Shown here piece by piece: positions 34,601 to 64,000 of a stretch of 64,000 nucleotides of DNA. Below the pieces are notes generated by a model, which saw nothing but the letters and a program-made list of their open reading frames with translations, did no database searches and was not told the DNA's origin. Location of the stretch: NCBI GenBank assembly GCA_003344405.1, contig NOWV01000146.1:124001-188000 (forward strand), read 5' to 3'. Origin of the DNA: Trichoplax sp. H2 (lineage: Eukaryota). The position numbers were made by a program, and so were the translations under genes. Numbering within the stretch: the stretch's first letter is position 1; the number at the start of each line of letters is the position of its first letter.

Positions 34601-37035
34601 TACTTTCTCCAAATGTCCTAAACCACTTTTTCTCAAGTTAATTTACGAAAGATCATGTAAATGGCATTCATATTCTAAAGGTGACGTAACATTTTTAGCC
34701 TCAACCTTAGAAGAAATTGTTGAACAACATTTCGAAACTTTAGAACAAAAACATGGAAAAGTTTTAGTTAGCTCTGCTTACGGATATATTACAGCCTCAC
34801 GCTATGGTTTAACAGAGTCTGAAATAGAAGATCTCTTATCATCAGATAACGACGTTATTACCGCTATCTATGATAAAAATGTCCCGACAGTTGCACGTAT
34901 TCCACCGATCACTTGGATCCGATTACGAGCTGATGCTGGTAGCTACTTAAGCTTGTATACCGCCAATCGAGGTCGTGTACTCAAATGGTTTCATCGATTT
35001 ATTGATGAATGCGCCGCAAGGCGATATCTATCCTCAGAACAACAACGTAAAAATAATTACACTGCCCTAAGTGACTATTTTCGCGGTACTTGGAGTAATA
35101 ATCGGAAAAAGCCTTGTAAGAATACAAGTGTGGACAGGTTATTACCTCCTCAACCACTAATATATAGCACCAAGGAAGGAAATAGGCCAATATACAATTT
35201 CCGTAAATTGGCTGAACTACCTTATCACTTACTTCGTGCAGGTAACAACTATCGTAAAAATGTACCATAATATAGTGTATGAAACGTTTAACAAAGAATT
35301 TTTGTTCTCTTTTTAAAAATACTACTAAAATAATATTGTTAGCATACCACTCACATGCACTACCGATTAATTATGGTATATTCTGAAAAGTAAATCATTC
35401 ATTTTATCAACTTATACTTTCCACATAGGTGAAATTGACAAAATGAAGGAAGAAACACTTTGTAATTATGAATTTATTTTGACCAAAGCTTGTGCAATGT
35501 CAGTGGCACAAGTTTTAGACGACATCAATCTTGCCCTTCAAAGTCCAGGAAGTGTCGGCGACAAAGAATTACAACTTCTACATGATGCTCTAGTAATATC
35601 TATGAATGCCCTCAAAATGGACCCTACTCAGCTTGCATCTCAATTAATTGGTCGAATTGGTCGAAGTGTTGATAAAAAATTAACACATTTAAATGCTCTC
35701 TTACAACAGGCAATGAAGCCATCAATCCCTAATTTAATTCCACGTCGAGAATGCTTAACTAGGCCTGGTAGTGAAAAACCAAACCTAGCTAGCATCGATA
35801 TGGCAAGTCTTAATATGGAAAAATTATATATGAATAATTCAAACGTCAATGTTACAACTACTTCAAAGAAACGTAAAACTTTTACAGTATGGAATGTTAA
35901 CAGTTGCCTTCCAGTCCGCTCATTTCGAAATATTACCGTTGATCAAATTGTTATCATGAAAAGCAACAAAATAGCTGTTTACTTCGATCGTCGAATTGTT
36001 ATCATTGATTTAGATTCCGGTGAAGTATTAAACAAGATCAAGGGATTTCACTATCAGCCCAAATTTCTTGATAATGAACACCTAGTAACTCTTTCTCGTG
36101 GTAGAAAATTTGTCAAGATCGTTAATGCTATATCGGGTGACTCTATTGCATCTTTAAAGGCAGATCAGAAAAATTGTATCGATCGCTTAATGGTTAGTAG
36201 TGCAGGTAGTTTAGCTTTATGTATTTACAAGACCGAGGAAAATATCATCGGATTTATTTCTTGGGACCTTAAAACAAAGCAACAATTACCTAAATTTGAT
36301 ATCAAAGATTATATCTTTAAAGAGCATATTATAAGATATTCGTCTCTAAGTGATGATGGCGAAATATTTGTTGCCGCTTCTGATGGAACACGTAAATCAG
36401 CAGAAAAGCAAGCTGCCGTAGTATTTGACGTAAAAAGCGGCAAAGTTAACTTTGGCCTATTGTATGAATCATCTCAAGCCAGAGGATTGCCAATTGGTTT
36501 TACATGTTTTACCATCTCGAAAGAGATTATATTATCTGGTTGCAAAGATAGTAGCCTTCGTTGCTGGAATAGAATTAACGGTAAAGTAATTCACTCATTA
36601 AAGGGCCATAGTAGGCCAGTTCAACAGATTCGAGTAGATGAAGATAGCTACCGTGCTATCACGGTTGCAAACCATCGTGAAGATAACAGTATCAGACTTT
36701 GGGATGTCAGACAAGGTTTACCTCTAAGTTGTTTTATACCAGATGAAATTCCTAAATGTGTTGGTATCACAAACTGTGGTTCATGGATTGTATTCTCCGT
36801 TGAAAAAGCCGAGAATTTAGGAGTACTTGGCCTCTTTTCGAATAAATCCGAGCCTGGTACTGTTAATGAAGAACGTGCTATCGATGATGCCTTCACTGAA
36901 ATCGATCTTGAATCTTGTTGTACAGCGCCACATGATCCATTTGATGGCGATGACGATGTTGATGAATATGAATTTGATGCAGTCACAATCGAAACCGACA
37001 CCTCAACAGACCCTATGACCAGTGATGACTTATAA
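31696..37035 (+). CDS. NACHT- and WD40-repeat protein (NWD1/NWD2-like; DUF4062-type N-terminus); 5' end uncertain
   Basis: Phase-consistent exons 31696-31839, 31980-32124, 32246-32402, 32525-32727, 32835-33162, 33311-34041, 34132-34344, 34464-35241, 35429-37035 (~1430 codons). Motifs: RIIKILVSASHTDFNQER..VFPKIR..FQAIDVTWGI, LVGDRYGYRPLP, Walker A GPSGCGKTS, Walker B VLIIDGLDQL, ITASRYGLTESEIEDLLS, RKLAELPYHL, WD repeats LSGCKDSSLRCWN/LKGHSRPV/DNSIRLWDV. First in-frame ATG seen at 31808; a further upstream exon is possible. Confidence 0.9.
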
Positions 37036-40000
37036 TAAAATAGCTGTTCCAACTTTTAATTATTAAAAAAATTTTTAATATTTTACAGACTTGTCTTGAA
37101 TGATAGATGTTTGTTCGTGCCATCAATTTAGACAACTGAATTTGTTCATTGATTCGAGCGTTGAATGACATGTGTAGAATGCGTTATTTGTAACGCTATT
37201 TACACTCATTCCGTTAAATACGTAATTACGATTTATCATTGAAGTTTACAGTATTTTCTTGCTATAAATTAGCTATAATGTTACGCTCGATTCTTAAAAT
37301 GATAATTTCAAATATCGTAATTGCTGCTTCTGCTTCAGTAAGGGTAACATGTTTCACAGTTCTTACATATACCATATTTTTATTCTACCCTTATAACGGA
37401 TCTGATTGAAGTAGTCAAAGCTGAAAAACGCGGTTGTCAGAAGACAACTACAATGACAGCTGCTTTATATCTATATGACATGGATTTAGGAGACGAAAAA
37501 TATGATGTAGTTTATTCTAAGAATTGAAAAATATTTTACTTTCCTACTAAAGTACTATGGCTAGATCTTTTAACGGAGATTGCCCATTATTAATATTATG
37601 GTATGCGGACTTTAGATGAAATAATCTCAATTGTAGGAAATAACAACTGATCTTTGCTTTTAACGGTAGCTGTAAAGTCTTGACTTTATTCTTTAGGTAA
37701 GTGATGGCTAAGTTCCAACACTACTCCTTCTTGATTTTCTACTAATGCGACGTTTTAAATATATTTGAATTGTATCACCTCGACTAAGATAATTACAAAA
37801 TTTTTTCAGTTTCAATCGAATATTCCAAAAAAATTTGTCCTAATTTACTAAGATCTCATTTTACTTGTACAATGATCTTCAACGTTACTAATCTGCCTAC
37901 CACAAAGAGTATGCAACGGTTTACTACCGAAATTGTTGTTGACTTAGCTGATGATCTATGTAACGTTGTAATATTTGAACTTTGTAGATAAAAATTTACT
38001 TTGCAGTTTGCACTTCCCTTTGAAAAGAAGGATAATATTAAAGTTTTTATGATAATCAATAAGGTATATGAGTATTAGAATTTCCGGTGTTACATTTCGA
38101 TCGGTGGATGATGTACTAAAATAGAAAAAATAAAAATAGTTAATGTTGTAAACTTGTAAAATAATACGTTATTACACATTTACCTATATTAAATACTACA
38201 TTATTTATAGGCAGCGCAGGGCAATAGAAGATAATGCAAAGATAAGTTTCAGCTATATGATTATTGAGATTGAAACGGATAGATAATAGGACTCTTATTG
38301 TGTTTTACAATAATATCTGTATTGCACATGCATAATTATCTATCAAATATCAGTAATACAGTAGATAAACCATCGAAACTGCTGCAACAACACATGAAAT
38401 AAAATAAATGTTTAGAAGTTCGTGTTTGCAGTATATGCACTGTACCACTCATATTCTGTAGTCAATACTGAAGACTATTATAAGATGAAACTTACTACTG
38501 TGATGTACTCCCATTTTAAAAGATCATTATGAACTAGTAGAAAGGTCCAACTTGGACCGCAACTGCTAAAAGAAAAAGTAAAACCTACTTGAACTGATTC
38601 GATTTATTGGAGAAGTTCTTGAATACTTTATTTCCACTCACTTGCTACAACCTACAACGAGATTACGCTGTCTCTCGGTTGTGGATGATTTATGAATAAA
38701 ATTTTTCTGTAACTTCTGTAAGAGTAAAGTCAAGAAAATCATAAAATTCATGCTAGGAGGACCTTCAGCAAGCCCTAACTATAGATAATTACCCAAGTTG
38801 GTTATATCCGCAATTAAAATAATAGAATTGCGAACACCAAATGCCATACTAGAAGAGAAAGAAAAACTCTGCAGAGTAGCAATCTTAGTTTGAACTGTAC
38901 GTGTATAAGAGCATCCTGTACATACTGGTATGTATCTAGTATGTATCTAGTAGTTCTGTGGATCGATTCTAAATAATAAATATATATAATAAGTACATAA
39001 GACACTATCGTGGACATATATAAACGTAGTAGAGCTCGCTTCCCTCATCATTTGAGCCTTTTTATATCTTTGCATAGCATTCTAGTACCTGGGCTTTATC
39101 GAAAGCCGAGGAAATGGCCTATGAAGCGGCTAGCTCAGTACTAGTATCTCCCATAACACTGATCGCAAATGTATCCTAGACATGAGCGAATTCTGATGTA
39201 TTCTATCGTATTGCCTCCAATATCCTATATGAATGCAACTTACGCTATCATACAGTAACTACATGAACTGATTTCATTCCTATGTACAGTTATAATAAAT
39301 ACTTGTAAGACCACCATTTACAATGCTATGAAACGTGGTGAAGAACTTAGAATCGGAATCCTGGCAGGCCTAACCATAAAAGAAACTGTTACATTGATAG
39401 TTGTCAACATCTAAATAAGAAAGTACCATTAGGAATCACAATTACAATCGCACAATATTATAATAACTACTATAGTATATCCAAGACTGTAATCGAATAC
39501 TATATCTAACAAATACCGAAGTTAATATCTATTTATTTAGAACTACATTCAACTGTATTCCGGCAAGGCTCTACTGCTAAATTTTAGTGCGCCACTGTCT
39601 GTCTCTTCCTTAATCATTTAAAATAACGTTCGGTAAATGCCAGAAGAAAACATAACAGCTACCGTCCCAAATCGGTAAGTAACAAGTAGAAGTAATCTAC
39701 CACTTAGCCACAAGATACGGTAACTGAATTCATAGCATACGTGTAATCACAGTTACTGAATAATGCCGCAGCATAGTATCTGTACACAGTGTACGGTCAT
39801 AAATTACTGGAAAAAGAAGACTTTTATTAATTTTCCAGTAGCCCTGAAATTATCATAGAAATCTACCATTTCCAGGTATGTCTACTACTGTACAACATTT
39901 CTATATCTATTATTCCTATTTCTGGGCAAATAAGCTATTTTTGTTATTAGAGCTACAATAATCAATAATCTATATCAGGTCCAAAAGAAGTGAGCGTACT

Positions 40001-40350
40001 AAGAAAATTGAAATGTTCAAGTCAGAAAATCAGCCATGATATCGGTACCGCGACTTCAGTTGTTATTTGTTAATGACAAGCTATGCGTAGATTTATTTGC
40101 AAGCGAAAATAGCCAGCATACCATGGTCTGTTCACAGTATACCGTAAACATATAAACTACTACAGGTAAGAACATCCAGTAGTATACAGTATTACACAAC
40201 ATTGAACAGCCCAATTTAATTTCAATCAATCAATTGAGCTACAAGATTAACAAGCAGCCATGTTGAACCTTGCGAGTTTTGCCTATTCCGCAGTGCTGCA
40301 AGAATGTAGAGTAGCTATAAATAGTAAAATCTCCCATCCTATCATCGGTT

Positions 40351-40424
40351 GGCGCTGTGGCTTAGTTGGTTAAAGCGCCTGTCTAGTAAACAGGAGATCC
40401 CCGGTTCGAATCCGGGCAGTGCCT
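40351..40424 (+). tRNA. tRNA-Thr (anticodon AGT)
   Basis: Acceptor stem GGCGCTG/CAGTGCC, D arm GCTT..AAGC (A box TGGCTTAGTTGG), anticodon arm CCTGT-CTAGTAA-ACAGG (AGT 40385-40387), T arm CCCGG-TTCGAAT-CCGGG. No intron, no encoded CCA. Confidence 0.98.
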
Positions 40425-40427
40425 CTC

Positions 40428-40442
40428 TTTTTGTTTTTTTTT
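40428..40442 (+). terminator. Pol III oligo-T terminator of tRNA-Thr
   Basis: T5-G-T9 starting 3 nt after the discriminator base. Confidence 0.85.
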
Positions 40443-42631
40443 CCTATTTTCATCCGTATTCTACTGTACAGTACTGACCACAGTATAGGGGATCATTCCA
40501 TAGTACTGTATACTAGGGTACCATATAGATAGAACATCCCGTAACAACAGTTTAAGGCGGTGACGTTAATGGGTTGTTTATTTGCCTTGTTTACTTCCAG
40601 TTGTTGTATATTGTTTATTTTATTTTTCATTAACTGAACCCGCTGAGCAAGGCAAAAGATCATTCCTTCCTTGCTTCATGTTCTATAACCATGTAGTCAT
40701 GGATAATTGGTATCAATTCCTCTGAAACTATCGTTAGTGAGGCATCATTAATTCTTGCATAAAAACATCTTGAAATACGAACTATATTAACCAAATTATG
40801 GACAGGCCATACGGTCGATGATGGGATATACAAGCTTGATACGAGTATAGTCAATTAGTCATGGACCACTAGATACTTTCTATAGGGTATAGTATCTAAT
40901 GGTCTAGGGTACAGTATAAAAACACGATAATAAAGTGTCCAGTAAATTAAATCTACTGTATATCAAACCCTCCCAATATTGTACAGTATTGTCGCTACAG
41001 TATTCACTATATTGATATATCATATAATGTCGACGGTGATAGCCTTGCATGCAATTCTGCCAACTGCTCTAGGACTACAATTAACAATGTCAACATAGTA
41101 TAGCAATGCTGAAATGGGTTGCATTGTAAGCTGCTAGAAGAGTTTGTTGTTGTAGTCATGAAGTTACTCAAATCACTTTAGAGTAGCCTACGATCGTTCA
41201 ACCTAGAAAACACGGCTTTAGTATACTTATATCTCTACGTGACTTAATGATGAAGATCCTTTCGAGGATTTTTTAATACATGTGCTACGCTAACAAATTT
41301 TAGCTTGCTTTTCGTATTTCATAAAATTAAAGAATGATCTTTTGTTTAAACATTTCAATTTAACGAATAGTAATATGATTCTATAATAAAACGGACAGCA
41401 TCGAGGATTGCTAAATGGAGATTGAGCTATTTTACAATAAGGAAATGCGCTATTTTATTGCAAGCACAATCTACCTTAACCATGTATGCATACAATTCCT
41501 TTTCATTTGACGGAGTGGCTACTAACAATACAATTGCGATAATCTCTCATCGCTAGAATTCAAAGTAGATTTTAATATCTGGGAAATTATCTCCGTGGTA
41601 AAATTATTACATACAGTACAGTAAAGCGTCTATAATCAATCATGCAAAAACGTCAACAACTTAGCAAATAAAATACTCATAGACACGAAGATTTTAGCTA
41701 AATTAAAAGCTTTTATGTCCATGTATAAATTTGATAAATTGCAATAATTAAATAAACAGGCAGGTAGCTCAAACGGAATATAATGATTACATTTGATTCA
41801 CTAATTTCGAAGCTGTAATAATTAATTAATTATTACTAGATTGTAATAACTATGTATTACCATTGATATGAACCTTAGTCAATTTACATTCACTAAATGT
41901 AACGAGCATATGAATAGGAATGGATCCTTAAACACATACAGCAACAAGTATATTTGTGAACGAATACTGCAATACATTGTTAATGATTCAATACGATTAT
42001 AAACTATAGTATAGATACAACTCCGCATAAATTCATATATCAGATACTGACAGTCCAAGCATAAAGATGAGAACAGTTGTAGTATATTTTGCGAAGGATA
42101 CATGAAAATATTGTATTATAAATCCAATAGGTATTATCTTTGAATAATATTAACTATATAGAAACTAGATTCATGATGTGCTTTAAAAATAGAACGAATA
42201 AATCGCTAAATAATGCAACATTATGCAATACCGTAATCGAGTGTAGACATTCCTAATAGTAACCTATTTTATAATTAGTGATTATGATCTCTCATACGTG
42301 TAACATGTAACTATGAAACCCGAAAATCATTAAAGCATGATTTCAATATTTTCCTCTTTCTAATACAATCATCGCAGTACAGAAACATATTCCTCCCTTG
42401 TAAAACATGACAATAAATCAGCACGTACACAGTATACATTAGCCATATCTCAAACATTATCTACAATTATTATAATAGCACAAAACGAAGAATTACTATC
42501 AGATCAGCAACTTTGCAATGAGTAGTAGCCTAGCTATATGTCATCCTAAACTTTAGCTAAGTTGATTATATCAGAATACAAGACAAGAAGTTACATTTGT
42601 AATTTCATCAAGGTTTTATATTAATAATTAA

Positions 42632-45600
42632 CTACGGTTTTTGCAGCTTGGTGATTTCCGTAATCAGATAGGATTTTTCATCCATAAATTGCTCGTCATC
42701 TAAAATGTCAATGGCAAAACAATTATTATTTTAGCAATACGCGTATAAAGTATATTATCAAATCAAATTTAGCCTTGATAACTATAAAAGCACCTGTTCT
42801 ATCTGTTTGAAATTTAGGCAAGAATGTTAATAGTTTCTCCTTATTCTTAAATAAAATATCTATTATGGGTTTAGCCTTATTAGGGTTCGCAACAAAAACC
42901 TATCGTAGGAATACATAAGTTGTTATTATCACTATTATAGCAATGATATAGAAATTTATCTGATATATTTTATGGTATTAGTCTGAATCATCGATAAGAA
43001 ATAGCTATAAAGTGCACCTTAAACACATGGAAGGCTTCAAATTGAATATTTCTACTCTTATCCTTGAGTAAATTCATGATAAGCTTAAGATTTTCTGTAT
43101 TACCAACGTATTTCGTCATCGAAGAAAAATTGTGATGATCCAGCAAGATTTCTCCCAATAACTGCAATCAAAAGATTCCCTTCTTTTATTAGATGTATGT
43201 TATCTATACGTGTGTGTATACGATATAAATTATATTATTGGTTCTTGTATACCTTCAAAGATTGCCTTTTGGTCACATAATTTTCTGACGTTAATAACTT
43301 GACGTAATGTTCAAAAAGCTATCACAAGAATTATGAACAATCATGATATTTTAGTTCGTATTATTCAGTAGATGAAAATGATAGTACATTTCCTAGCTGC
43401 TTTAACAATTAGTAACACTTGTATATACATCATCTACCTTGTCATAATTTTTCTCGATAAATTCGGCACATAGCGTTTTATGCTTTGTTAATAAATCCTA
43501 AAGGTAAATGGTAATCATTTTTACTACAGCTGCTATTTGACAAAGGAAATTAAAATTAGCAAGGCACGGAAATACTCGTATGCAATTACCTTAAACGTAG
43601 AGAATGCATCAGAAGCAACATCAAAAGCAGAAAGTTCGACATAAGTAAAAAATTGATAGAAGGCATCAGAACTTAGAATAAATTTCGCCAATATATCGTA
43701 TTTGACACACTCTCTTAGAATTATGCCACAATTGAGGGCAATATCTGAATTTTCGTAGCTTCAATTGTTGCATGTTGTAAGTTATATAGCAGTAAAATAA
43801 TACAAATTTTGATTATAACCTTGATAAACACCAAATAACGTATACTATTAACTGAAGTTGAGAGTAAGACGATTAATAGCATAATAATTAAAGTTACCCT
43901 TGGATTAAAGTGAAAAGGATTTCATTTTTACTGCGAACATATTCAACAGTAGGTGAGCGAGTGCCGATTTGTCTCCTAAGTAAAATATTAAAAATCTGGA
44001 CGACATCCTTTTTCGCCTAATCAAGAGTAAAAAATTAGATTTATTAGAGAAAGAAGAACAAACTCGTTTCTAATATGTTAAATTAAATACTGGATGCCAT
44101 TTTTATTCACCTCAAATTCCAATCTATGAAGATGATTAACTAGAAACAGCAATAAGTCGAAGTTATAAATTTCTTGCGCTAATTGAGCGACTTGCTCTGT
44201 TTGTGGCTCTTGATCTATAAATAAAAAAAGTAGTAGTATTTTAATATCTTGCAGATGTTCCTTCAATGTACGTGCTCTACTCTGCAAGAATAGACGACTA
44301 CATCCATGGCCTAATCATTATTTACAAAGATTAATTGAACTAGAATCTAAATTGAAAGTATTACACCGAGCTTATAACTAGACAATTCAGTGTAGAGTAC
44401 TGTACAAGTATGATGTCAACTTTTTGAACCATGACACGCAGCTTTCTTAATTATCGTATTATTTTGACCTTTCAAAGCACAATTATAATGACGGTTACAA
44501 TTAATTAATACTATCCTCTACAGCTGTACGCTATAACGAGATATTTCGATGGTGTACGATTTATCTACTATAGCATAAAAAAACAGTATCTTACTTGTCA
44601 ATAACTTGTTACTAAGTATAAGTTAACGTACTACCATGCATGCCACTTCCTCACATTGATGTGTAATCGTTCAATACAAATTAGAATTAATATATAACAT
44701 TGACGTAATGTTACCAAAATCGCCGTACTAAAGGTAAATAATTGATAGCAATTCTCTTACAACTTTACATCATTAACCAATTGTAAATTGGCCAATATTG
44801 TATCAAAATAAAAATGTATTGAACTACAGTATTAGTACCACTATCAAACTGGAACATACGTCAGTAAGTGACAGCAATTATCTTGTTTACATCACATCGT
44901 TTATATCACTAACTTAACCAATTGTAAATTGTAAACTTGCTAATACTGTATAGAGATAAAACGTCTTAAACTATAGTATCAATACCACTATCAAAGGGGA
45001 ACATAAATGTAAGTTTCAAAAATTGAGGGAAACACTGTGCTGTACACTGTACAATCAAGCCATCTTACACCTTGACATCATAAACAAATTGTAAACTTGA
45101 CAATCTGGAGATAAAACGTATTGAAACTATCAATACCATAATCAAAGTGAAAAATAAATGTACTGCTCGGTTGTCGCCTTAACTGACAAAATGCTTACCT
45201 CCAACTCCACATAATATATTCTTCATTGCTACCAATTGCTTACCAATTTCATCTGTAGCCTAATGATAAGGTGAATAGAATAGATTAGTAATTATATAGC
45301 AAGGCTTTTATACCTTTGCAATACATAACCTCCAAAATGAAATACCACTGGCATTGCATGTTACAATTTAACCACACTATTTTTGCGTGCAGTAGTAGTC
45401 AATGTAATCTGTCATCGTTGAGAGTTATCTCTATGCGTTGAACAACTCGTGTTCAACGCTATCGCATTCAGAGGTAGAGAAAAGAGGTAAAAGTCATGGC
45501 AAAAATCATACGCACGCCCCAATTTTGTAACATAGCTTGATAACAGTGCTGTTACTCCCTATGATATTAGCACTATACTGCATCATCATGCAATTCAACC

Positions 45601-46744
45601 AATGTATTGAGTCTAAATCGTTCTTCATTGATTAAAAGCAATCAATCTTGATCACGTTCCAATCAATCATTTGAGAGCTCAATGGACTTTAAAATTTTGG
45701 CTTGAAATTCTGTCGTACAAACCAACTAAGTGAACCGCTTGTATTGATAGCTTAGCAATGGCACAAGGCAACAGTTTAACTGTATTTCATCTTTGTAGCA
45801 TTTGGTCGAAGAATAAGGTTGACATATTGAATCCATCACGGCTTGTCCTAGACCGCATTCCAAGATACAATACTGTATGTTTGCCGTGACGATGACAGCG
45901 CCATTGAAGAGATAAAATGATCAGATAGTATCGAGTAAAGTATAAAGAATAAGCACGGGCATTTCTGATCTATCCAGTGTCATCAAGACAACTACAACAG
46001 TTGAAGAAAGAAAACAACTAGCCAACTCATTAGAGAACAGTTTTTGACCGTGCCTTGTTGCAGGGGATTACCCTCATCTACACAGAGTCGATTGTACTTG
46101 CCTAGTTTATGTCTACTTCTATGATACTCTGTATGCGTTATTACCCAATTGCATTGTGACAAAGAATAAGGCGAAGGAAGTTACTACAGCAAGATTGAAA
46201 AATCATGGTGTCTACAATCGATTGAGTCGTATCGTTTCCGATGGTTGAAATTGGAATTCTACAATGTCGTTGCGGTTAAAATGGATTGCACTTGGATATT
46301 GTATGTTGTCCTAAGCAAGTATAGTACTACCCATGTTTTGTAGAGTAGTCTCATTACTACTAAGGCAATAGTATGCCAAGTTGGCCTAGCCCTAGAGAGA
46401 AACCCATTCATTATCATCGATCAGACTCTAAACTTAAGTTAAGACTACAACCGAGACAATACCGTTCAAGCCCACCAATGCCATTCATTGCATTGATGAC
46501 TATGGTATAGGATAACACTTTACAATTAGAAAATGATGGCGGAGTCATGAGTTGAGATGAACACCAAGTCGGAAAGCTTCAAAGCACTATGTCGACAACA
46601 GCAGTAGTGGATGACAACGTTGTAAGTAGGGTTTACCTTCTCTGCTTTCTTGCCAGAACCTTCTTTAATGATTGTCGCTAAAGCATCGCGAGAAATCCGA
46701 ACAAGCTCATAGGGCGATTTCTGCTTGGAACCAAATAGCGGCAT
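42632..46744 (-). CDS. CAB39: MO25 / calcium-binding protein 39 (LKB1-STRAD scaffold), 10 coding exons
   Basis: Exons 46744-46637, 45259-45199, 44214-44111, 44016-43898, 43758-43590, 43497-43438, 43318-43253, 43161-43018, 42899-42794, 42699-42632. They give [119 protein letters not shown], with TAG at 42634-42632. Confidence 0.97.
44765..45162. repeat. three diverged ~150 bp copies in CAB39 intron 2
   Basis: AAC(C/A)AATTGTAAA..ATAAAA..TACCA..ATCAAA recurs at ~44776, ~44916, ~45083. Confidence 0.75.
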
Positions 46745-46899
46745 GGTCGACAAAACAAGGTTGATTACTCCTTCTAATCCTTACAAGGCAGCGATTGCTG
46801 ACGACTTTTGAAAAAGCTGCAAATCCAAAATCAAGTCCAATATTCAACTCCTGCTGCAACTTGCTCTGCTGTATCCCACAGCTGTATGGACGTATGGAC

Positions 46900-47250
46900 G
46901 TACTTACGCTTTCTTGTTGTCGAGGCGAGGAACGGCGCGCCGTACTGGTCTGTACTAGACCGTACTGGTACGCGGCGCATCGGTCTACAGTACACTGTAC
47001 TGTACTGTACAGTGTACAGTGCTGACAGCATGATCCCAGAGCAAAGGATCCTCCCTCGTCTACAGTACTACAGACTCTGCACTCTACAGTGTCAGTACAG
47101 TACTGTAGAGGTCCGCAGAACAACTCCAGTGTGTGGCACGTGACTTGCGGTGCCTTGGATGTTGTTGACTGGAAGTTGATTTGGCCGCTTCGCTGGCGCT
47201 GCCAGTCTTTTACGGCGTACTGTACACTGTACACTGTACGCTACGGCTCG
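46900..47250 (-). promoter_or_regulatory. CAB39 promoter/5' UTR exon region
   Basis: GC-rich; minus-strand donor GTAAGT near 46907; GTCACGTG E-box (minus) at 47137-47144; dense ACTGT/ACAGT motifs. Confidence 0.55.
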
Positions 47251-47289
47251 ATCAGGCTAGATGTACTGTAAAACACAAGTTGTTAACTT

Positions 47290-48455
47290 TGGCTTTGTTT
47301 CCAGTACAACAGCAAGAAATAATACGACATGTATTTTACACATTTTGGTACAGTACTGTACAGTGGACAGTAGAACACCAAGAAATACAGTACTAGCACG
47401 AAGAAAAAGCAGATTTTCCTTTCAGTACTGTAGTAAAATGTGTAAAATACTGCACATGTCCTACAGGATTACTGTACTGTACAGTATATACAACAACGCC
47501 CGCCAAAATGTCTTCAATTAGAATTATTCAACCTATTCTTATGTCCAATCTTACAGTAAAAATGAAAGCGATGATGTAAAACAGACCGGTAAAACAGATG
47601 AAATCGATGAAAAATAAATAAAATAAAATAGATGCAAAACAGATGTCGTTCCTTAGGGCTTTGCTTCCAGTATAACACCAAAAAGTGAAAACGACATCTA
47701 TTTTACACATTCTGGTACAGTACACTGTACTGTGCACTACAGTGTACAGTATTGAAAGCAAAAGATGCTTTTTCTTCGCGCTGTTAACTAGGAACCCAAG
47801 GCAAAATGTCACTAATCAGAACAAATTAATTAATTATTCAACCCATTCTTATGTCCAATCTTACAGTAAAAATGAACGTCTAATGTCGAACTACTAGTAG
47901 GACGTTGGTGAGAAGAAAAGTTTGATTTTTTCTTGGCGCTAGTACTGCACTGTGACTATGCTATACCTACCATAGCAGCAACTTCAGTAGTTAACTCAAG
48001 GCAAAGCCCCTACTGGACTCAACCAATTCTTCTGCCCAATCTTACAGTACAGTAAAAATGAACAGCATGTCCAACTACACGTTAGTGAGAAAGAAAAGCT
48101 TGGCTTTTTCTTGGCGCTAGTACTGCACTCTGACTATGCTACGCCTAGTGAGTAGTGAACAAAAAGCAAAGCCCCAATTGGACTCTACCAATTCTTTCTG
48201 TACCTGTCTGTACAGTGTACATTGCGTATGCCCAATCTTACAGTAAAAAGAAGGGACACTTAACCACGGTGGGGGTGAGAAGAAAAGCTTTTGCTTTTTC
48301 TTCGCACTAGTACTGGCACTGTGACTATGCTACGCCAACAATAGCAGGGACTAGTCAACAAAAAATTTTCCATATCCATTAGCAACCCAAGCCAAAGTCC
48401 CAATTAATTCATTATTCAACTTGACAAATTCTTATGTCCAATCTTACATTGAAAA
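47290..48455. repeat. complex diverged repeat cluster (~180-310 bp periods) with internal inverted repeat
   Basis: CCAATCTTACA five times (~47545, ~47854, ~48036, ~48232, ~48438); GTGAGAA..AAAAG..TTTTTCTT..TAGTACTG..TGACTATGCTA three times (~47908, ~48085, ~48275). Confidence 0.85.
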
Positions 48456-48842
48456 GGACAGAGAAACACCACTGTCTACTCACTGTACAGTACTGTACAA
48501 TATACAGTATGTCATATACAAGACCGGTATTACGACGCGACTTGGACAGTAAAATGCTTGCAGCGACCGGACATCAAACAGCGAATGATCGCTTGAACTC
48601 CAAACTTGAAACAAATAGAATCATTCAATACTGCAATAAAAAGGAATCACAATACCAAGAGCCAATTGCTCAAGGTTGTACTGATCTATCTGCATGGAAT
48701 TGGAGCCAAATTGAAAGTCCATTTCTTCAAAATGGAAAGACATAATGGAAGGCAATACTCTTGTAGAGTGGAACATCTTTCAACCATTTTACAGCGCTCG
48801 CCGCGCCCCTGGAAGAGTGGTCTTATACAATTGCAACCCTAG

Positions 48843-49753
48843 AGGAAGGCTATGGAAAAATCGCGGAGTTTTACCAAGGGTGGTGAGAAACAGAGGGAAA
48901 GTTGGGGGTTGACTAGTCTCTGACTTGTATCTAAGCAATGCAATTATTACAATTGACAACTTTAGCATCTTCAACTAAAGGCATCGAAGTGTAGTATAAA
49001 TACCACGGCGCCGCTCATTTTAGGAAGACTATGGAAAAATCGCGGAGTTTTACCAAGGGTGATGAGAAACAGAGGGAAAGTTGGGGGTTGACTAGTCTCT
49101 GACTTATATCTAAGCAATGCAATTATTACAATTGACAACTTTAGCATCTTAAACTAAAAGCATCGAAGTGTAGTATAAATACCATGGCGCAGCTCATTTT
49201 AGGAAGACTATAGAAAAATTGGACTTCTGGTAAGGGATGGTGAGGAACAGTTGGAAAATTGAGGGTTGACTAGTCCCTGACCTGTAACTAAGCAATGCAA
49301 TTACTGCAATTGACAACTTTTGCATCTTAAACTAAAGGCATCGAAGAGTAGTATAAATACCCCGGCCGGCGCCGCTCATTTGAAGCGAGGGTGGGTGGCA
49401 TATACTTTACACTAGTGTACACTGTACGGTGCAACCCTTTAGGAAGACTATGCAAAAATCGGAGTTTCCCCAAGGGGTGGTGAGGAACAGAGGGAAAGTT
49501 GGGGCTTGACTAGTCTCTGACCTGTATCTAAGCAATGCAATTATTACAATTGACAACTTTTGCATCTTAAACTAAAGGCATCGAAGAGTAGTATAAATAC
49601 CCCCCCCCGGCGCTGCGCATTTTAGGAAGACTATGGAAAAATCGGAATTTCGGTAAGGGGTGGTGTGCAACTGAGGGAAAATTGAGGGTTGACTAATCTA
49701 TGGCCTGTAACTAAGCAATGGAACTATTGCAATTGACAACTTTTGCATCTTAA
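48843..49753. repeat. tandem array of ~179-bp monomers (5 copies, last partial)
   Basis: Monomers start AGGAAG(G/A)CTAT at 48843, 49022, 49201, 49441, 49624. Shared GTTGACTAGTC..TAAGCAATGCAATT..CAATTGACAACTTT..GCATCTT..GCATCGAAG..TAGTATAAATACC. Confidence 0.95.
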
Positions 49754-51092
49754 GCTAGTAGGAAATCTGCTAAATCTCCTTCTCCATCATCATGACTACA
49801 GCATTTAGTACAGTACTGTACATTTAGCGTGCAATAGGTGTACAGTAACTCCAGTTATCCGCAGGGACCGCGTACACTATATGAAAGACAAATCAACAGG
49901 GCAAAGAAAAAGTATAACAGAGCTAATGTACTACTGTATATTGTGCATGAATTTATTTAAAAAGATCCATAATCATAATCTAGACAGTTGTAGCATCGTC
50001 AGACGCGTAAAAATCACACAACGCATGCATTCACATTCTAAATTTATCTCCAGATAGTAGCTAGTACATATCCGTGGGCTGTACTCCTAGTAAACAGCTT
50101 GATATATTTAAAACGCAATATTTAGGACTTTTTAAATGATCGTTTATTGGAATATTATCAGATTATAGTTTACATATTTAATAAAGGCAAGGTACAGACC
50201 GCATAAAATGAGGTATATCTTTAATTGACATCTATCTTACTTCATGACCAGCTATACCTACATTTTTTTATGGATAGGGTCACATTATTAATAGGATTGG
50301 GTAACGTTCAATGTAGATATTGCACAAGCTATAGCTTCTACTCAATACTAATCTATCTTCTTTAATTGCTAGATGATATTATATGACATCTTTTCATCAT
50401 ATGGGCTCAAGGTTAATTCTGCCAATTATTTGCAACTTTAATAAAGCCCACTTGGGTAATATAATATTCCTTCCTGTGTACACGTCCTAAAAAAGAAATA
50501 AAAAAGTTTATCAATAAATACGCTATATTAACTATATATACAATAATCCTGACCGTAGTTATTGTTATTGTTAGGCAAGTATAGCTAATAATATATTATT
50601 ATTAACGACTAGAATACTGCTGGGTCTTGTGCATTATAATATTTTTAGAACGACTAGATTAAACTGCATCTAATAGTAACTCGCGACAAGTAGAGTACGC
50701 GCGTAAACGGATGCTCGACATATGGACTGCAAGAGGACCTACCTACCATTCATTCTAATGTAGCGTAAAGTAACATTTAAAATCTATTTCAATCCATAAG
50801 CAAAAAAAGCAAAATTGTTGGGTCTACTTTAATTTCATCCTTGTTCAATCTTTAATCCCATTAGTATTCTTACTATACTGAAACATTGTATCTGGTATCA
50901 GGAACATCAAGAAAATATAAAAATAAAAGCAACCCAAATTTGATCCTAATGGTTGATATCAATTACAGTATCTATCGTGTAAACTCATACAGCAGAAAGA
51001 AAGCTAAATTCTATTTTGAGCACAAAACTAACATTTGTATTCGATCAACTACAGTAGTACAAATCTTTACCAATAATTTGGCCGGTATAGGC

Positions 51093-52110
51093 TTAGGCTT
51101 TCGATTTTAGTATGTTTGAGCTATGATGGAGTTTCTCGGTATTGAATTTTTTATTATAACCATCTCTTTTCTGCGAAACCGACAATTTATCGTTCCGCTT
51201 GGCTGATAAAATGCCTTTGAAATGAGTACTGCCCTTTAATCTTAATTGCGGGTGATAATTGGTTTTTGATAATTTCGCATTAGAACGAAATTCTCTCTTG
51301 AACAAACTCAACCCAGGAATATTTTTATCTTCCTCTTCCTCTTTATGAGAAGTAGCAGTGGGATCGTGCCTAACATTAAATTCGCTAAATAATGGATTGT
51401 GTCTTTCGTTAAACCAACTAATGAGAGGGTCTTCTGACTCTTGTCTTTCCTCAAACCAACTAATTAAGGGATCTTGCCTTCGTTTCAAATTATTGAAATC
51501 TGCGTCTGAAAAGATGTGTCTCTTCTTAAACAGACTAATACCAGTATTAGAACGAGCTTGTCTTTCATTAGATAAGCTAATACTAGCACCAGGAGGAGCT
51601 TGCCTATCGTTGAATAAGCTAATACCAGGTCCTTGTCTCTCATTAAATAAGCTAATACCAGGTTCTTGTCTCTCATTAAATAAGCTAATACCAGGTTCTT
51701 GTCTCTCATTAAATAAGCTAATACCAGGTTCTTGTCTCTCATTAAATAAGCTAATACCAGAGTCAGGAGGCGCCTGTCTTTTTTTAAACCAATTTATAAT
51801 AGGTTCTTGATTGTTCTTGTATACATGACGATCAGTTATCTCTATTACGATGCAGTTAAAAAATATTCAATACGAGTATGCAAGTAAATTATAAAGTAAT
51901 CATATCAGTTGATTTAATCTACGACTAGTTAACTTCTAAATCATCGTTTCACTTAAAAATTGCAAGGAGCTTTGTCAATGAAGTATGGAGCATCGTTAAT
52001 TTTTGTTTGCATAGTTATATACGATATATGCAATAGCGTATTGCTTTACCTTTGCATGTTGCGATAGCATTAAGGCCAATGATGGTAACAACTAATAGAC
52101 AGATCTTCAT
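51093..52110 (-). CDS. secreted neuropeptide precursor (placozoan LF-type; QEPGISLF / DPLISWF repeats), 269 aa, 2 coding exons
   Basis: Exon 52110-52050 MKICLLVVTIIGLNAIATCK (signal-peptide-like), GT-AG intron, then exon 51841-51093 open to TAA: ..QEPIINWFKKR QAPPDSGISLFNER (QEPGISLFNER)x3 QGPGISLFNDR QAPPGASISLSNER QARSNTGISLFKKR..KRR QDPLISWFEER QESEDPLISWFNER..NIPGLSLFKR.. Confidence 0.9.
51610..51760 (-). repeat. 33-bp coding tandem repeat (11-aa QEPGISLFNER unit)
   Basis: TTAAATAAGCTAATACCAGGTTCTTGTCTCTCA identical at 51643, 51676, 51709, with diverged flanking copies. Confidence 0.97.
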
Positions 52111-55100
52111 TTCGCCTAATCTTTCAATAAAAGCGTTATTAATATTGGACTATAAAAATATTTGCGAAATATGGTTCAAGTTCATACTTTGATAGTAGAG
52201 TAGTTACAGGTGAAATTATTTTTTAATCATTTGTTCAGTAAGATCTGTATAATTACACTATTTGCAGTTCTTAACTTAAAGTACAAGCAAAAGATTAAAC
52301 AAATAATACTTGATTAATAAATTTACCTTATACACATACATTACATTTTTTTGTATATTAAATACGCATAAAATACTTATTCCAAAATATTCAAACTTTC
52401 TAAGATACGCTAACTTTTTAACAGTTACCTTCTGATAAATCCCTTAATTGGTATTGCTCAACTAAACTGCAATATTTAACGAAAAAGTTGCAATTCGCCG
52501 CTATATATCTAAAAAGTGAACAAAAGAATTCATTCTTCCTAATCTATTTCTATTTAACTTTATCAGACTCCACCTACCCGTACCTAAGTATAATTATGAT
52601 AAATAGATAAAATAAAATTTTCTTAGCCACAATAGGTCATTTCATACTCTGGCCCAATCTGTCAGTAAATAAAATATTTCCCTGAAATACTCAACAGTGG
52701 CAAAATTAATAAAACCAAAGATCAATAGCAATAAATCTAATTATAACGATGATATGTATTTTATTTATTCGCTAAGGCATACTATCCATTATTGTAACAG
52801 ATAAATAGTAATACTGTGTTGCATCACTATATTTCAATCCTTAAGAAATTAAAAGCCATCTAAAATGAAATATAATTAACTTACCTCTTTTGTTATGCTA
52901 GATTAATGTATTTGTAAATATAGTTATACTAAATACTGATTATAAGTAACGGATACACTGATCATTAGATTATATCTATGGACAATAATTTAATTTAATA
53001 TAATGTTGAATTAATTGCTAAAAATGTTATATTAATTTTAAGGACGTATTTAACACCATAAAATTTTCAAAGTGAACTTTTCGTTATCAGAGAAGAGGAA
53101 TGGCAGACTTTGTGTCTGACCATTTTTGACCTAAATTCTATCAAAGTATCTTGCCTAAAGTATTCACGTTCAATAGAAACTGTTATAAATAGATTAATAA
53201 AGTTATCTATTCCACACTCACTTAATTTCATCATCACGTAAACCACAATTACAATTATTGTTGACCTTATTTTTAATTGTTTCATAATATCAACAATGGT
53301 CTGATTTACCAATATCTTATTATATATCAAACAGATTTATCTTGGATTTATTCATCTGAAAGGTACAAAAAAAACTAAGAATCAACTGAAGAATATATAG
53401 AAGCTTAGGAAATTAATATTATGATTTACTAGATGCTTAGACAACAACAAAAATGCCTAACGGTAGCTCTATTTGTCATTATTATTATTGTCTAGAATGC
53501 CTAAGCTACTGTGTGTAAATAACTTAATAGAGAGAATGCTATCTTTACAGCAAGATACACAGCTGCAACTAGACCAATTTAAGGAACGTTATTTTACGCT
53601 CTCATTGTATTAATATTATCATGCTTTATTGCGTTTAGGAAGAAACATAGTTGGTAGAAAATGAGGTTTATATCTATATCCTAAAAAATTTCATCATTTT
53701 TCTGTTTATAGGTTAAGGTATATGTAATTATGTTATTAATTTAACCTTTTACTTATACATCACATCAAATCATTTTGAACAATAACTGTATTATACATGC
53801 CTAATAAACAGATTGTGCGAAGAACGCATTTGGAATTCTAAAATCTATATTTAATTATGATGTCAAAATCTTTTTCTATAGTGCAGTAATAATATATCAT
53901 GGTTATATAATTTTTATCTGATTATTTAAGATAGAAAATTAATACAAAATGATTTGAAAGTTTAGTTGAGTTTATCATTACTTAAACCTTTGCATTATTA
54001 TTCGAAAATTGAGTTTTAACCGTCATAATTAAACGAGTAGTTATAATCAATTTCAAATTTGCTACTGGCAATGACATAACATAAGTGATTGTAAACAGAA
54101 GGAAATTTTTATTTTGATCACAAGCAAGTTCATTTTTTATTACAAAAAAAATCTTAGCGAAAGAGGTGCAGGTGGATCTATCTTTCATAATTTCAATACT
54201 TGATTAAACAAATTAATTTCTGGAATTGTAAAAAGAAAGTTTCTGAAAAATTATTTTGTTTACATCTTATTGATAATTATTATAATAGAATTATTATTAT
54301 AGACCACAAAATACATTTTTTTAGCAAGCAGATACTATTGTACTTAATTATATACATAAAGACAGTATGATTTCATATTTGCTTCCATTGTCTAAATGGG
54401 ATGAAAACCAATAAAATTTTCCATATCATATTATAAATATCTGTAAAAATCCACTGAAATAATCATAAAGTGTGCCTGCAAAGTCCTGATAATCTCTATA
54501 ATTATTACCAAGACTACTTGTATTTATTATAATGAAGAACTTAATACATATGTTACCATTCTAGTATAAAACGGAACAAGAAAGCTATAAACGCGATAAT
54601 AAGTAATGTCTGCTGCATATTAACATTTTATCGTTACCGCTAACGGTTAAGTATACAATCGAAATTTTTAGAAGTAAAATTACCTCCCCCTGGCAATAGT
54701 TATAGGATAATCATATTTGAACAGTTACCATAATTGAGCTTACAAATTGTGGAATTATCGGAGTTCTACTTGTATATCTGTATTGTTGAATCAGACAGGA
54801 TAATCATATAAGTCAACTGGTTAAGCCTTCAGAAATACCTTAATAAAGCATCTAAGAATAGATATCGAGCTAAATATCAAAGGTATTAACATACTGTAGT
54901 GCAGTCTTTCATTTAACGTTTAGCGGACACGGAAGTATTGCTATTACAAGTCATTGAAATTTCAACTAGCATCATAGCGGCATAATGCTTAAATATAGAC
55001 ACTTTTTTGTCTGTAAGGATTAAAGACTTATTGTTAATAAATCCTGTAACAAGATTCAAATATAGCTTATAGATTGAAATTAGTAATTCTCTAATGATCA

Positions 55101-58335: not shown

Positions 58336-58580
58336 CAATCTTGTTCTTTATTGTTGTTATTTCTTAAATAAATTGAAAGAATCGGACTGACCGACATGCT
58401 ATCAAAATAAAAGACTTGGTGGGCAATGTTAAGCTAACGTGTAGTCTTGTTGTTGTTGTTGTTGTTTATTGCTGTTATTTCTTAAATAAATTGAAGGAAT
58501 TTGACCGATCGAAATACTACCAAAATAAATTACTTGATGGGCAATGTTAAGCTAACGTGCAATCTTGTTGTTTATCGTTG
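58336..58580. repeat. tandem duplication, period ~118 bp
   Basis: TGTTATTTCTTAAATAAATTGAA..TGGGCAATGTTAAGCTAACGTG..TCTTGTTGTT twice. Confidence 0.9.
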
Positions 58581-59612
58581 TAATTTTTAAACATATTTTA
58601 GCCAGAAAAATAAGACGTGGCATGATGATATGGTAATGTTATTAAAAAAATGTCCGTAAGTGGAAGCCTGGATCGCCCGAGTCAAATACCTTACGGCTTT
58701 GATTGAGAATGTTCGGAAATTAGTTGGATGCTAGGCTGAGCTCAGTATCACTTATTCGCAACTTGGTTTATACCGATTTTATCACAAATAATAATTAAAA
58801 TTGGCAATACCTTACCTCATAAACATTTTGCAGTAATAGTTTACTCGACGAGAAATGCACAAAGGTGAAGATCTTACTAATCAAAACTATTCTTGGGAGA
58901 ACATGGAAGGCTTTTTTTACACATGGTACCGAACTATAGTTTCCAATCATGTCAGAGCAACATCGTCTTTAAATATTGCCGACAATATCCTTGATGACAA
59001 TGATTTACTCATAAACAATTTCTTTATTTTACATTGAATATGATTGTTGTTAAAATGGCACACTGAGATTCCATAGAAGAATGCAGAAAAAATAGAATCT
59101 TTTCTGTAGGAGTCATTTGCATAGCGTAAAGGAAAAGCCTTTCACTCTATTTGTCCTAATGGTGAACTGTCCTTTCCTGGCCGAGCTAAGAAAAATGGAC
59201 ATTTCAAAAAGTAAAATTGATCACAATCAAAAAAATTTAGAAGGTTGTTAAACATTATACAATATACTAGATAGGATAAATTTTAAAAATTGAATACTGT
59301 TACCACACTATGAGCAACGAAAATGCATAACTCGTATCATTTTTAATACTAACACTAAAGGCGAATGAATTGCCAATTTGGTAAGTTTTCAACTCTCTAG
59401 TTTAAACTAAGAACGACTCATGGAGAAAATTAATCCCTGCACTCTAATTTGCTGCTTAGGGACTCCTTATCAAAAGCAATTTTCATCGATAAAATTGATA
59501 ATTTTTACAGTAGCATGGGAGTTTTCCGATGCCTCCATCATGGTTGCATCTGTTTAACTTGCACTTGGAAATAAAGGGAGTAATAACTGAGACTTTCCGG
59601 TCTCCCCATTTA

Positions 59613-62294: not shown

Positions 62295-64000
62295 AATGCT
62301 TTCATAGATTACTGGTCAAAAATCGAGTCATTCTACTATTTACTCAATTGTAATATTGCATAGCAACTCGAGAAGAAAATATTGCACAACAGGAATACGA
62401 GTAAACACTTCTTTTATTTCATTGGTAATTCTTATATGATCTTATTTCGCTAGAGAGCTAATACGTAGACGCCTAGTTCAATACATTCACATAGTTTATG
62501 GCATCAATTTGTATAACTTGATTATCGTTATTTTCTTCCACTACTATACTTATTGGCATCTGTATGGTTGCTTTCGCTTAAATAATGACTATAGATCATG
62601 ACTATATCATTTAAATTTATGTATTACGATTGATAGATTAAGGCTAAAGTATCTACGGAAGATGGATAGTTGAGAATAACGTATAAACAACATGACTACC
62701 TCAACGATAGACAACTGCAGTAGTAAAGCATGTAGCCAATACGAGATAAAGCTATAGCATTATTATCCACACTTGGTCAATCTAACTGGAGATTTTGTTA
62801 CACATTTGAATTACCATTAACCGTTCAATGGGAAAGGAGGATGTTGGATAATCCTTCGGTTGAGACTTTCAAGCCATTTTTTCCGATCGACTAGATAAAT
62901 CACCAAGGAAAATTTTCTTAAATGGGTTAGAGTTAGGTATGTAAGATAGCCTTTTCTGACCTCTTTTAAAAGGGATAAATCCTTGCTTTTCTGTATCTCT
63001 CTGCTACAGTGAGGATAAAATAAAGCCATGTTTACATTAAGTAAGCTAGGATTAGCATTTTTGTAATGAACTTAAAAATACTGAAGATTTCATCGAATAA
63101 CTTCTCTATAATATATACCATTCATCTGTAACTAGGTATCACTTATTTATTATCGACATGAGACTTACTGAAAACCAAGATACTACATTCTTTGCTTCCG
63201 ATTTCTCACTATCATCATCTTGCTATCAATAATAATGCATGAAGAAAGAAATTGGTTAACATTAATGGCAATCGATCATGATTTTGATACCTATGCTAAT
63301 TATTCTCTACTATTACAAATTTACAATTAGCAGTTTGCATTAACCATTTTTAACCAGATGTGTACGAATCGATCAAAAAATGGCAATAACAGTTAATTAC
63401 GTGATCACAACTCGGGGCTAGGGTTCCTAATTCTAGCTTGTTATTAGTCCATTTTACAAATTTTCTAGAACAAATTTAAGGTAACTAATGAATCGCTTCA
63501 ATTTGGGTCTATAAATCCTTGTTTCTACGATGGTTGATGCCAGAAAAGTACAGTAAGAGGTCTACAGAATTTGCTAATATATGAGTAAACGTAAGTACGA
63601 TATCGTCAACATTTTTATTAATGCAGATCAAATATATTTGTAATAGATGATTTTCTCTCTTATTAAATACAAGAAAGGGTTTTTTCAAAATGCGATGATA
63701 ACCTCTCCTAAATATTGAAAGTGGTAATATTCCTATCAATCAGTCTTTTTCTCCTACATAGTTACTTCTTGGAACAACTAGTATATACTATGGAGTATGC
63801 CGAATCTTTTAAATATTACTTTACGCCAGATTAATTCAATCTTTTTTAGTCTAAATTATTCCTTCAATTTCTAGTATACAAATAAGCTAAAGCACTACTG
63901 TACGTATATTCGCATAATTAATAACTCTTTATAACAGATTAAATAGGTTTTAAATTCTTTGCTCTTTCGTTAAGTACATTAATTGGTCTTTCAAAATCCG

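Follow-up and report, generated by a model that had tools for sequence, protein, structure and literature searches.

The window analyzed here, a stretch of 64,000 nucleotides from contig NOWV01000146.1 of Trichoplax sp. H2, carries on its minus strand a peptide precursor gene, with CAB39/Mo25 exons downstream and the putative last exons of another peptide precursor gene upstream [Table 1]. We are highly confident that the locus is the gene for the LFNE prepropeptide of Trichoplax, that it is transcribed into a spliced mRNA, and that its product holds one repeat in 11 copies and a further degenerate copy, which would be processed at an Arg three positions past the Phe of the core (F+3). A protein search with the spliced 269-aa product gave two matches among 5046 candidates: TRIADDRAFT_51274 of Trichoplax adhaerens (NCBI; P0001), which equals the product at 268 of 269 residues (E 4.3e-160), and P0002. 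The sole difference from the 269-aa TRIADDRAFT_51274 is K41R, inside a basic cleavage site. In the accessible parts of PMC10580291, orthogroup OG_9877 (Table S4) consists of TriadG51274, TrispH2_008149, Hhon_g10275, and PlH23_008500, and TrispH2_008149 is named LFNE_precursor (Table S5); the H13 orthologue is marked absent in Table S5, yet Table S4 places Hhon_g10275 in OG_9877. The published LFNE peptide, QEPGISLFNE, is given in the accessible part of 10.1101/360925, is linked to OG_9877 via that of PMC10580291, and occurs as three exact copies in the window product.

The gene is thus already known: its model, signal peptide, main peptide, behavioral effect, cell type, and one product detected by mass spectrometry (MS) are published. 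The original prediction had called it hidden, which does not hold, as NCBI has the same 269-aa model; its pointer to placozoan peptide precursors as relatives was right, as the match to TRIADDRAFT_51274 shows, and so was its reading of the locus as a multi-copy, nonamidated placozoan prepropeptide gene. It pointed to the LF-type precursors reported from Trichoplax; the gene is the LFNE precursor (51274), and the published LF precursor is the neighboring gene 51275. For the UTR introns, the WF copies, and the conserved basic tail, no published treatment was found in the literature searched, which did not extend to Nikitin 2015 or the precursor table of 10.1101/360925. The accessible parts of PMC11452194 and PMC5612019 provide background on peptide processing in placozoans and on LF cells but hold nothing on the LFNE gene, and the supplements of PMC12013895 and PMC9545775 gave no match to the terms sought.

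Table 1 Features of the LFNE gene and its neighbors (window coordinates)
Feature	Position	Strand	Remarks
Putative terminal exons of the LF gene (upstream neighbor)	62869..63222	-	from reading frames and adjacent gene numbers
3′ end of probable 5′-UTR exon	52429..52448	-	donor GAAG/GTAACT; X4 contig only
Signal-peptide exon	52050..52120	-	10 nt UTR, then 61 coding nt from the ATG at 52110; X4 contig covers 52050-52123
Coding intron	51842..52049	-	208 nt, phase-1, GT-AG; X4 contig joint 51841/52050, matches NCBI model P0001
Main exon	51071..51841	-	holds the basic tail and every peptide copy; stop codon at 51095-51093, 22 nt 3′ UTR
WF copy 1, PIINWF-KKR	51777..51803	-	directly after short pro-region; NWFK[KR]RQ common to P0002
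LF block, seven ISL(F/S) copies	51519..51776	-	three identical QEPGISLFNE-R; last is ISLF-KKR
WF copies 2 and 3, QDPLISWFEE-R and QESEDPLISWFNE-R	51402..51476	-	aa 143-167 equal to P0002 at 17/25
Degenerate copy, HNPLFSEFNV-R	51369..51401	-	stands where P0002 has WF copy PINWFSIR
Last LF-type copy, PGLSLF-KR	51294..51317	-	follows acidic spacer; LSLF-basic common to P0002
31-aa basic segment, aa 204-234	51201..51293	-	between two KR sites; conserved in P0002
3′-UTR intron	50487..51070	-	584 nt, GT-AG; begins 22 nt past stop codon
Last exon, noncoding	50143..50486	-	first AATAAA at 50148, 3′ limit provisional; RNA contigs over 50300-50485, 50300 being the edge of the stretch compared
CAB39/Mo25 exons (downstream neighbor)	42729..44314	-	Pfam PF08569 in 5/150 ORFs scanned

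On the minus strand, 51093-51866 is a frame of 257 open codons without a Met, and the first ATG/GTG/TTG start in the large exon is the TTG at 51488, which gives 131 aa and matches the earlier observation that the open reading frame (ORF) track displays only the last 131 aa. Joining 52110-52050 (61 nt, donor AAG/GTAAAG) to 51841-51093 (acceptor TAATAG/A) yields the open 269-aa frame. Four splice pairs in all keep the frame open, and the three others (donor 52023; acceptor 51805) were rejected, 52050/51841 being the pair used in the NCBI model as well as in an RNA contig.

Four of 21 sequencing runs were examined against the locus (X1, X4, X8, and X9), only X9 being recorded as RNA; the RNA status of X4 is a guess, though two introns are skipped in its contigs. 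The 51841/52050 joint is present in an X4 contig of depth 40.9 whose shorter arm spans 74 letters (one of the four runs), and this joint, with which the NCBI model agrees, supports the predicted splice to a signal-peptide exon. The listed pieces of X8 and X9 do not reach the coding junction, and X1 reads straight across the introns, as DNA would. The 3′-UTR intron is absent from contigs of X9, X4, and X8 (three of four runs, from three studies) and present in X1. Moreover, a single X4 contig ends at 52123 in a 17-nt loose end that matches 52432-52448 exactly, implying a 5′-UTR intron at 52428-52121 (308 nt, GT-AG). Because the coding joint, the loss of the 3′-UTR intron, and the 5′-UTR loose end are all found in contigs, the coding sequence is divided over two exons and the LFNE gene probably comprises four overall; the two-exon structure predicted earlier therefore stands for the coding part and is extended by a probable 5′-UTR exon and a 3′-UTR intron. 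The 3′-UTR intron of the LFNE gene, at 22 nt past the stop codon, lies inside the ∼50-nt distance usually held to escape nonsense-mediated decay. Within this intron, at 50496-50665, there is also a low-depth X9 contig (3.4), which may stem from DNA carry-over, from a different transcript, or from RNA not yet spliced.

Residues 3-16 of the 269-aa product are hydrophobic in a hydropathy profile, and the H2 orthologue is labeled wSP_nTM (signal peptide, no transmembrane segment) in the accessible part of PMC10580291 Table S5, the methods of which name SignalP 5.0b; both agree with the signal peptide proposed initially. The product contains six ISLF copies and one ISLS copy, one GLSLF copy, and three [IL]I[SN]WF copies, the same census as counted earlier (seven ISL(F/S), one GLSLF, three WF-type). 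A 33-nt tandem repeat runs through the LF block (51599-51760, 4.9 copies, 96% matches). In 8 of the 11 copies the Arg before the copy is followed by Gln, or in 9 if the inner Arg of QARSNTGISLF stays uncut, and there are no Gly-Lys/Arg sites in the 269 aa; on both points, that most copies start with Gln after Arg and that no Gly amide donor is present, the original prediction was accurate. No Pfam family matches the product above cut-off; the best-placed candidates, TRH (E 0.016, 15.4 bits relative to a cut-off of 27.8) and DUF1491 (E 0.013), both fall below it. No folded domain is indicated in a structure model (mean pLDDT 45.3), a weak model built from a two-sequence alignment.

Comparison with P0002 also draws attention to the basic tail. 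Over residues 204-240, 25 of 37 positions agree with P0002, compared with 13 of 44 in two spacers (Fisher p=0.0008, regions picked after the alignment was seen), and the basic segment may be released as a third product, itself conserved, or may serve in sorting. The same residues form no notably amphipathic helix and the model is disordered there; an antimicrobial role for the tail is for these reasons not proposed.

An Arg is present at F+3 in 10 of the 11 window copies, and in the last copy KR follows the core directly. The residues after the core are, in order, KKR, NER four times, NDR, NER, KKR, EER, NER, and KR. At the same positions P0002 has KRR, SER, NNR, KKR, RER, NEK, SIR, and RRE, that is, Arg or Lys at F+3 in seven of eight copies, with RR directly after the core in the eighth. 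As judged from these two sequences, what is conserved is not NE but the presence of a basic residue some three positions past the core. The "NER" processing motif put forward earlier is consequently best read as a peptide-terminal NE followed by a single-Arg cut, since NE varies in P0002 while the basic residue is kept. Moreover, the NE-R and KK-R codons (AAT GAG AGA and AAG AAG AGA, respectively) are two point changes apart, and hence the split between LF and LFNE ends needs no special motif.

In prohormone processing, a convertase cuts C-terminal to Arg and a carboxypeptidase then takes off the basic residues. Applied to the LFNE precursor as the simplest mechanism, this would mean cleavage by a prohormone convertase behind the Arg at F+3, with the C-terminal basic residues then stripped by a carboxypeptidase. 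With this cut and this trimming, copies with NE, ND, or EE at F+1 and F+2 would retain them and stay extended, giving seven extended peptides and one ISLSNE peptide, and copies with KK or KR after F would be trimmed to F (…GISLF, …GLSLF, …IINWF). The N-terminal Gln would probably be cyclized, and the peptides may undergo further trimming. For the WF copies the F+3 rule predicts …PIINWF, QDPLISWFEE, and QESEDPLISWFNE; two of the three would then end in WFEE or WFNE, and the product pQDPLISWF predicted earlier would not be expected. The proposal that one precursor releases both xxLF and xxLFNE forms fits the rule, and an NE-ended product has been detected by MS (one spectrum).

That product is listed for H2 in the accessible part of PMC10580291 Table S5 as [Q].APPGASISLSNE.[R], with one spectrum and no modification. 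It derives from the degenerate ISLS copy and lacks its Gln. The entry supports, on one spectrum, a single-Arg cut with NE retained. The accessible rows of the same table hold no MS entry for QEPGISLFNE, for bare ISLF forms, or for any WF form (SWF, INWF, QWF). Because the detected peptide is without its Gln and is unmodified, pyroglutamate in LFNE gene products is unsupported, and the pyroglutamate N-termini of the original prediction were overstated for this gene; pyro-Glu is seen on peptides of other Trichoplax precursors (PMC10580291, accessible part) and is argued for in general terms in the accessible part of PMC9545775, section 4.

According to the accessible part of PMC10580291 Table S5, expression of the LFNE precursor of H2 peaks in kappa cells, which are peptidergic, at a fold change of 108.8. 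Animals exposed to synthetic LFNE (QEPGISLFNE), bath-applied at 20 μM as a noncyclized peptide, rotate and flatten, their area reaching up to 130% (n=22 in five trials), and LF (DDSQDGYALF) has the same effect more strongly, with an area of 240% relative to the 130% for LFNE (10.1101/360925, accessible part). As the effect of LF is of the same kind and stronger, cross-activation of an LF receptor by LFNE is possible. Computed docking paired APPGASISLSNE with an adhesion-type GPCR (pDockQ 0.299; PMC10580291 Table S5), and the accessible part of that table has no docking row for QEPGISLFNE under the LFNE precursor name. For LF peptides, docking was to HG51 rhodopsin-type GPCRs. Taken as a model, the peptides would be free acids in paracrine control of ciliary and contractile behavior, most likely acting through a GPCR.

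The CAB39 gene number is adjacent to that of the LFNE gene in H2, H13, and H23, and the same adjacency is found in the window, where the Pfam scan took in 150 of 169 listed ORFs from 37100-50400; CAB39 is thus a conserved neighbor. Between LFNE and CAB39 there is a 179-bp tandem repeat (48843-49366, 2.9 copies, 90% matches), the likeness of which runs to about 49700. A large-exon gene on the plus strand at 32835-37035 encodes a P-loop, GPSGCGKT, and WD-like repeats toward the C-terminus, and appears NACHT-WD-like by eye. On the other side, a 118-bp two-copy tandem repeat (58341-58598) lies in the intergenic stretch between LF and LFNE. The LF precursor is Ta-51275, a separate gene (PMC12013895, accessible part) whose full sequence has the accession XM_002108379.1, and the orthogroup OG_4192 contains 51275 and 008150 only in the accessible table, with the LFNE gene outside it. 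In the window, the putative terminal exon of the LF gene extends from 63003 or 63000 (tandem NAGNAG acceptors) to 62869 and encodes (Q)RDTEKQGFIPF-KR…; a candidate phase-0 micro-exon of 54 nt (63222-63169, minus strand), coding for …KNVVSWFS, would run on to (Q)R and form a SWF-x-(x)-R unit. A protein search with the 42-aa terminal exon gave no match, so that the LF identity of these exons is without homology support. None of DDSQDGYALF, NPSNIGHPLF, and QPGHALF occurs in the 269-aa LFNE product.

Several readings other than the one favored here have to be weighed. That the LFNE reading frame is a tandem repeat without function, or that its model is wrongly spliced, could be argued from the 33-nt tandem within the exon and from an antisense frame of 153 codons that is also open, but this reading is ruled out, and we give it practically no weight, given the splicing seen in RNA contigs, the conserved homologue P0002, the MS peptide, the bioactivity of the synthetic peptide, and the coding variants across runs, four of five of which are synonymous (the remaining one being T120A). 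A different alternative concerns processing and not gene identity: the x-x-R may be a removable spacer, the dipeptide being trimmed after the cut, such that nearly all copies mature to F ends and LFNE is an intermediate. In keeping with this, the dipeptide is free to vary in P0002 (SE, NN, RE, NE, SI), copies flanked by KK or KR end in F already, MS peptides of the LF gene end in LF (e.g., NPSNIGHPLF), the LF peptide elicits the same behavior more strongly, and the only NE-ended peptide detected comes from a copy without F. However, that peptide does retain its NE, QEPGISLFNE is active in its own form, and removal of an acidic C-terminal dipeptide would call for an additional, so far hypothetical enzyme. 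We therefore consider the spacer model unlikely and prefer single-Arg cleavage with NE kept at the peptide end.

The two remaining questions concern the WF copies and the origin of the gene. WF and ISL(F/S) copies have 15 to 19 of 27 nt in common, relative to 7.6 ± 2.4 for random codons of the same CDS, a null that ignores amino-acid motif similarity and overstates common origin. Since register and DNA similarity are common to the WF and LF copies, they look like one repeat family, roughly P-x-I-S-[L/W]-F-x-x-R, as far as the sequences allow this to be judged. WF copies are probably released as peptides. P0002 (200 aa), only 42% identical to the window product, has retained the two classes in an unchanged order (WF, LF block, WF block, last LF), and its WF block is identical at 17 of 25 positions compared with 13 of 44 in two spacers (p=0.003, regions again picked after the alignment was seen). 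This order and conservation make a separate WF function plausible, and the change from Leu to Trp beside the terminal Phe is a large one; one cell type and one gene might then send two messages, WF having a receptor of its own. The shared register and DNA likeness speak against this, since both classes may on that account be potency variants at one receptor; WF peptides are also absent from the accessible MS table of PMC10580291, and neither behavior nor receptor data for WF were found in the literature searched. PLISWF was not found in the literature searched, outside which lies Nikitin 2015, which may list WF copies. A distinct WF signal is in our judgment a real possibility, albeit somewhat on the doubtful side. 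As to origin, LFNE and LF might be tandem paralogues of an old duplication, serving kappa and iota-like cells, respectively, through the same or sister receptors. The gene numbers are consecutive in two assemblies (51274/51275 and 008149/008150, in the accessible tables), the distance upstream from the LFNE gene to the putative last LF exon, which shares its strand, is about 10.4 kb with none of 85 intervening ORFs matching Pfam, the LF and LFNE peptides fall in the same behavioral class, and the candidate LF exon holds VVSWFS, a SWF-type unit. Yet the orthogroups differ (OG_9877 and OG_4192), the single-sequence, profile, and 1.84-billion-protein searches from LFNE all missed the LF precursor, the identity of the putative LF exon is unsupported by protein search, and the SWF-like motif is cheap: [ILVM][SNQ]WF is met about 2.5 times per shuffled window and has three further copies outside the LF and LFNE genes. 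Common descent by tandem duplication is accordingly doubtful. The most far-reaching version seems improbable to us, namely that LFNE and LF are an unrecognized tandem pair from a precursor with LF- and SWF-type repeats, that the LFNE gene releases LFNE peptides, WF peptides with their own receptor, and a 31-aa basic peptide, and that NE/KK changes switch the peptide ends.

The identification of the locus as the LFNE precursor gene leaves a modest residual value for placozoan specialists in the exon structure, the F-x-x-R rule for LF and LFNE ends, and the adjacency of LF and LFNE, and the conserved WF peptides and basic tail are the remaining interest. These points bear on the diversification of peptide signals before neurons. 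If true, the LF/LFNE tandem pair would offer a tractable example of how a peptide signal is duplicated and then shared out between two pre-neuronal cell types.

Single-sequence, profile, and 1.84-billion-protein searches found full-length relatives of the LFNE product in P0001 and P0002 only. Six of 12 other matches (P0003, P0004, P0006, P0007, P0009, and P0011) were rejected as internal simple-repeat matches without precursor architecture. The Atlas feature neighbors of the product are neuropeptide precursors (scores 0.81-0.88), which we take as a lead only. According to the accessible part of PMC9545775, section 4, placozoan peptide families have no orthologues outside Placozoa. The LFNE product resembles cnidarian and bilaterian multi-copy precursors (e.g., tachykinin-related, allatostatin, FMRFamide-like, and TRH) in its signal peptide, short repeats, basic sites, and N-terminal Gln, whereas there is no sequence homology to them and the LFNE product is without Gly amide donors. 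The amidated placozoan precursors (RWamide, SIFGamide, and FFNPamide) differ likewise in having Gly before the basic site, of which the LFNE product has none. With the Trichoplax LF precursor (Ta-51275; TrispH2_008150) it shares the LF core, nonamidated peptides, the rotation and flattening response, and an adjoining gene position; LF, however, is encoded by another gene in orthogroup OG_4192, is found in iota-like cells in contrast to kappa cells for LFNE, and gives peptides with other N-terminal parts (DDSQDGYALF, NPSNIGHPLF). The known system to which the locus corresponds is the Trichoplax LFNE precursor, TRIADDRAFT_51274, with the same coding splice, the same tested peptide QEPGISLFNE, and the same MS peptide APPGASISLSNE, the window allele being set apart by K41R.
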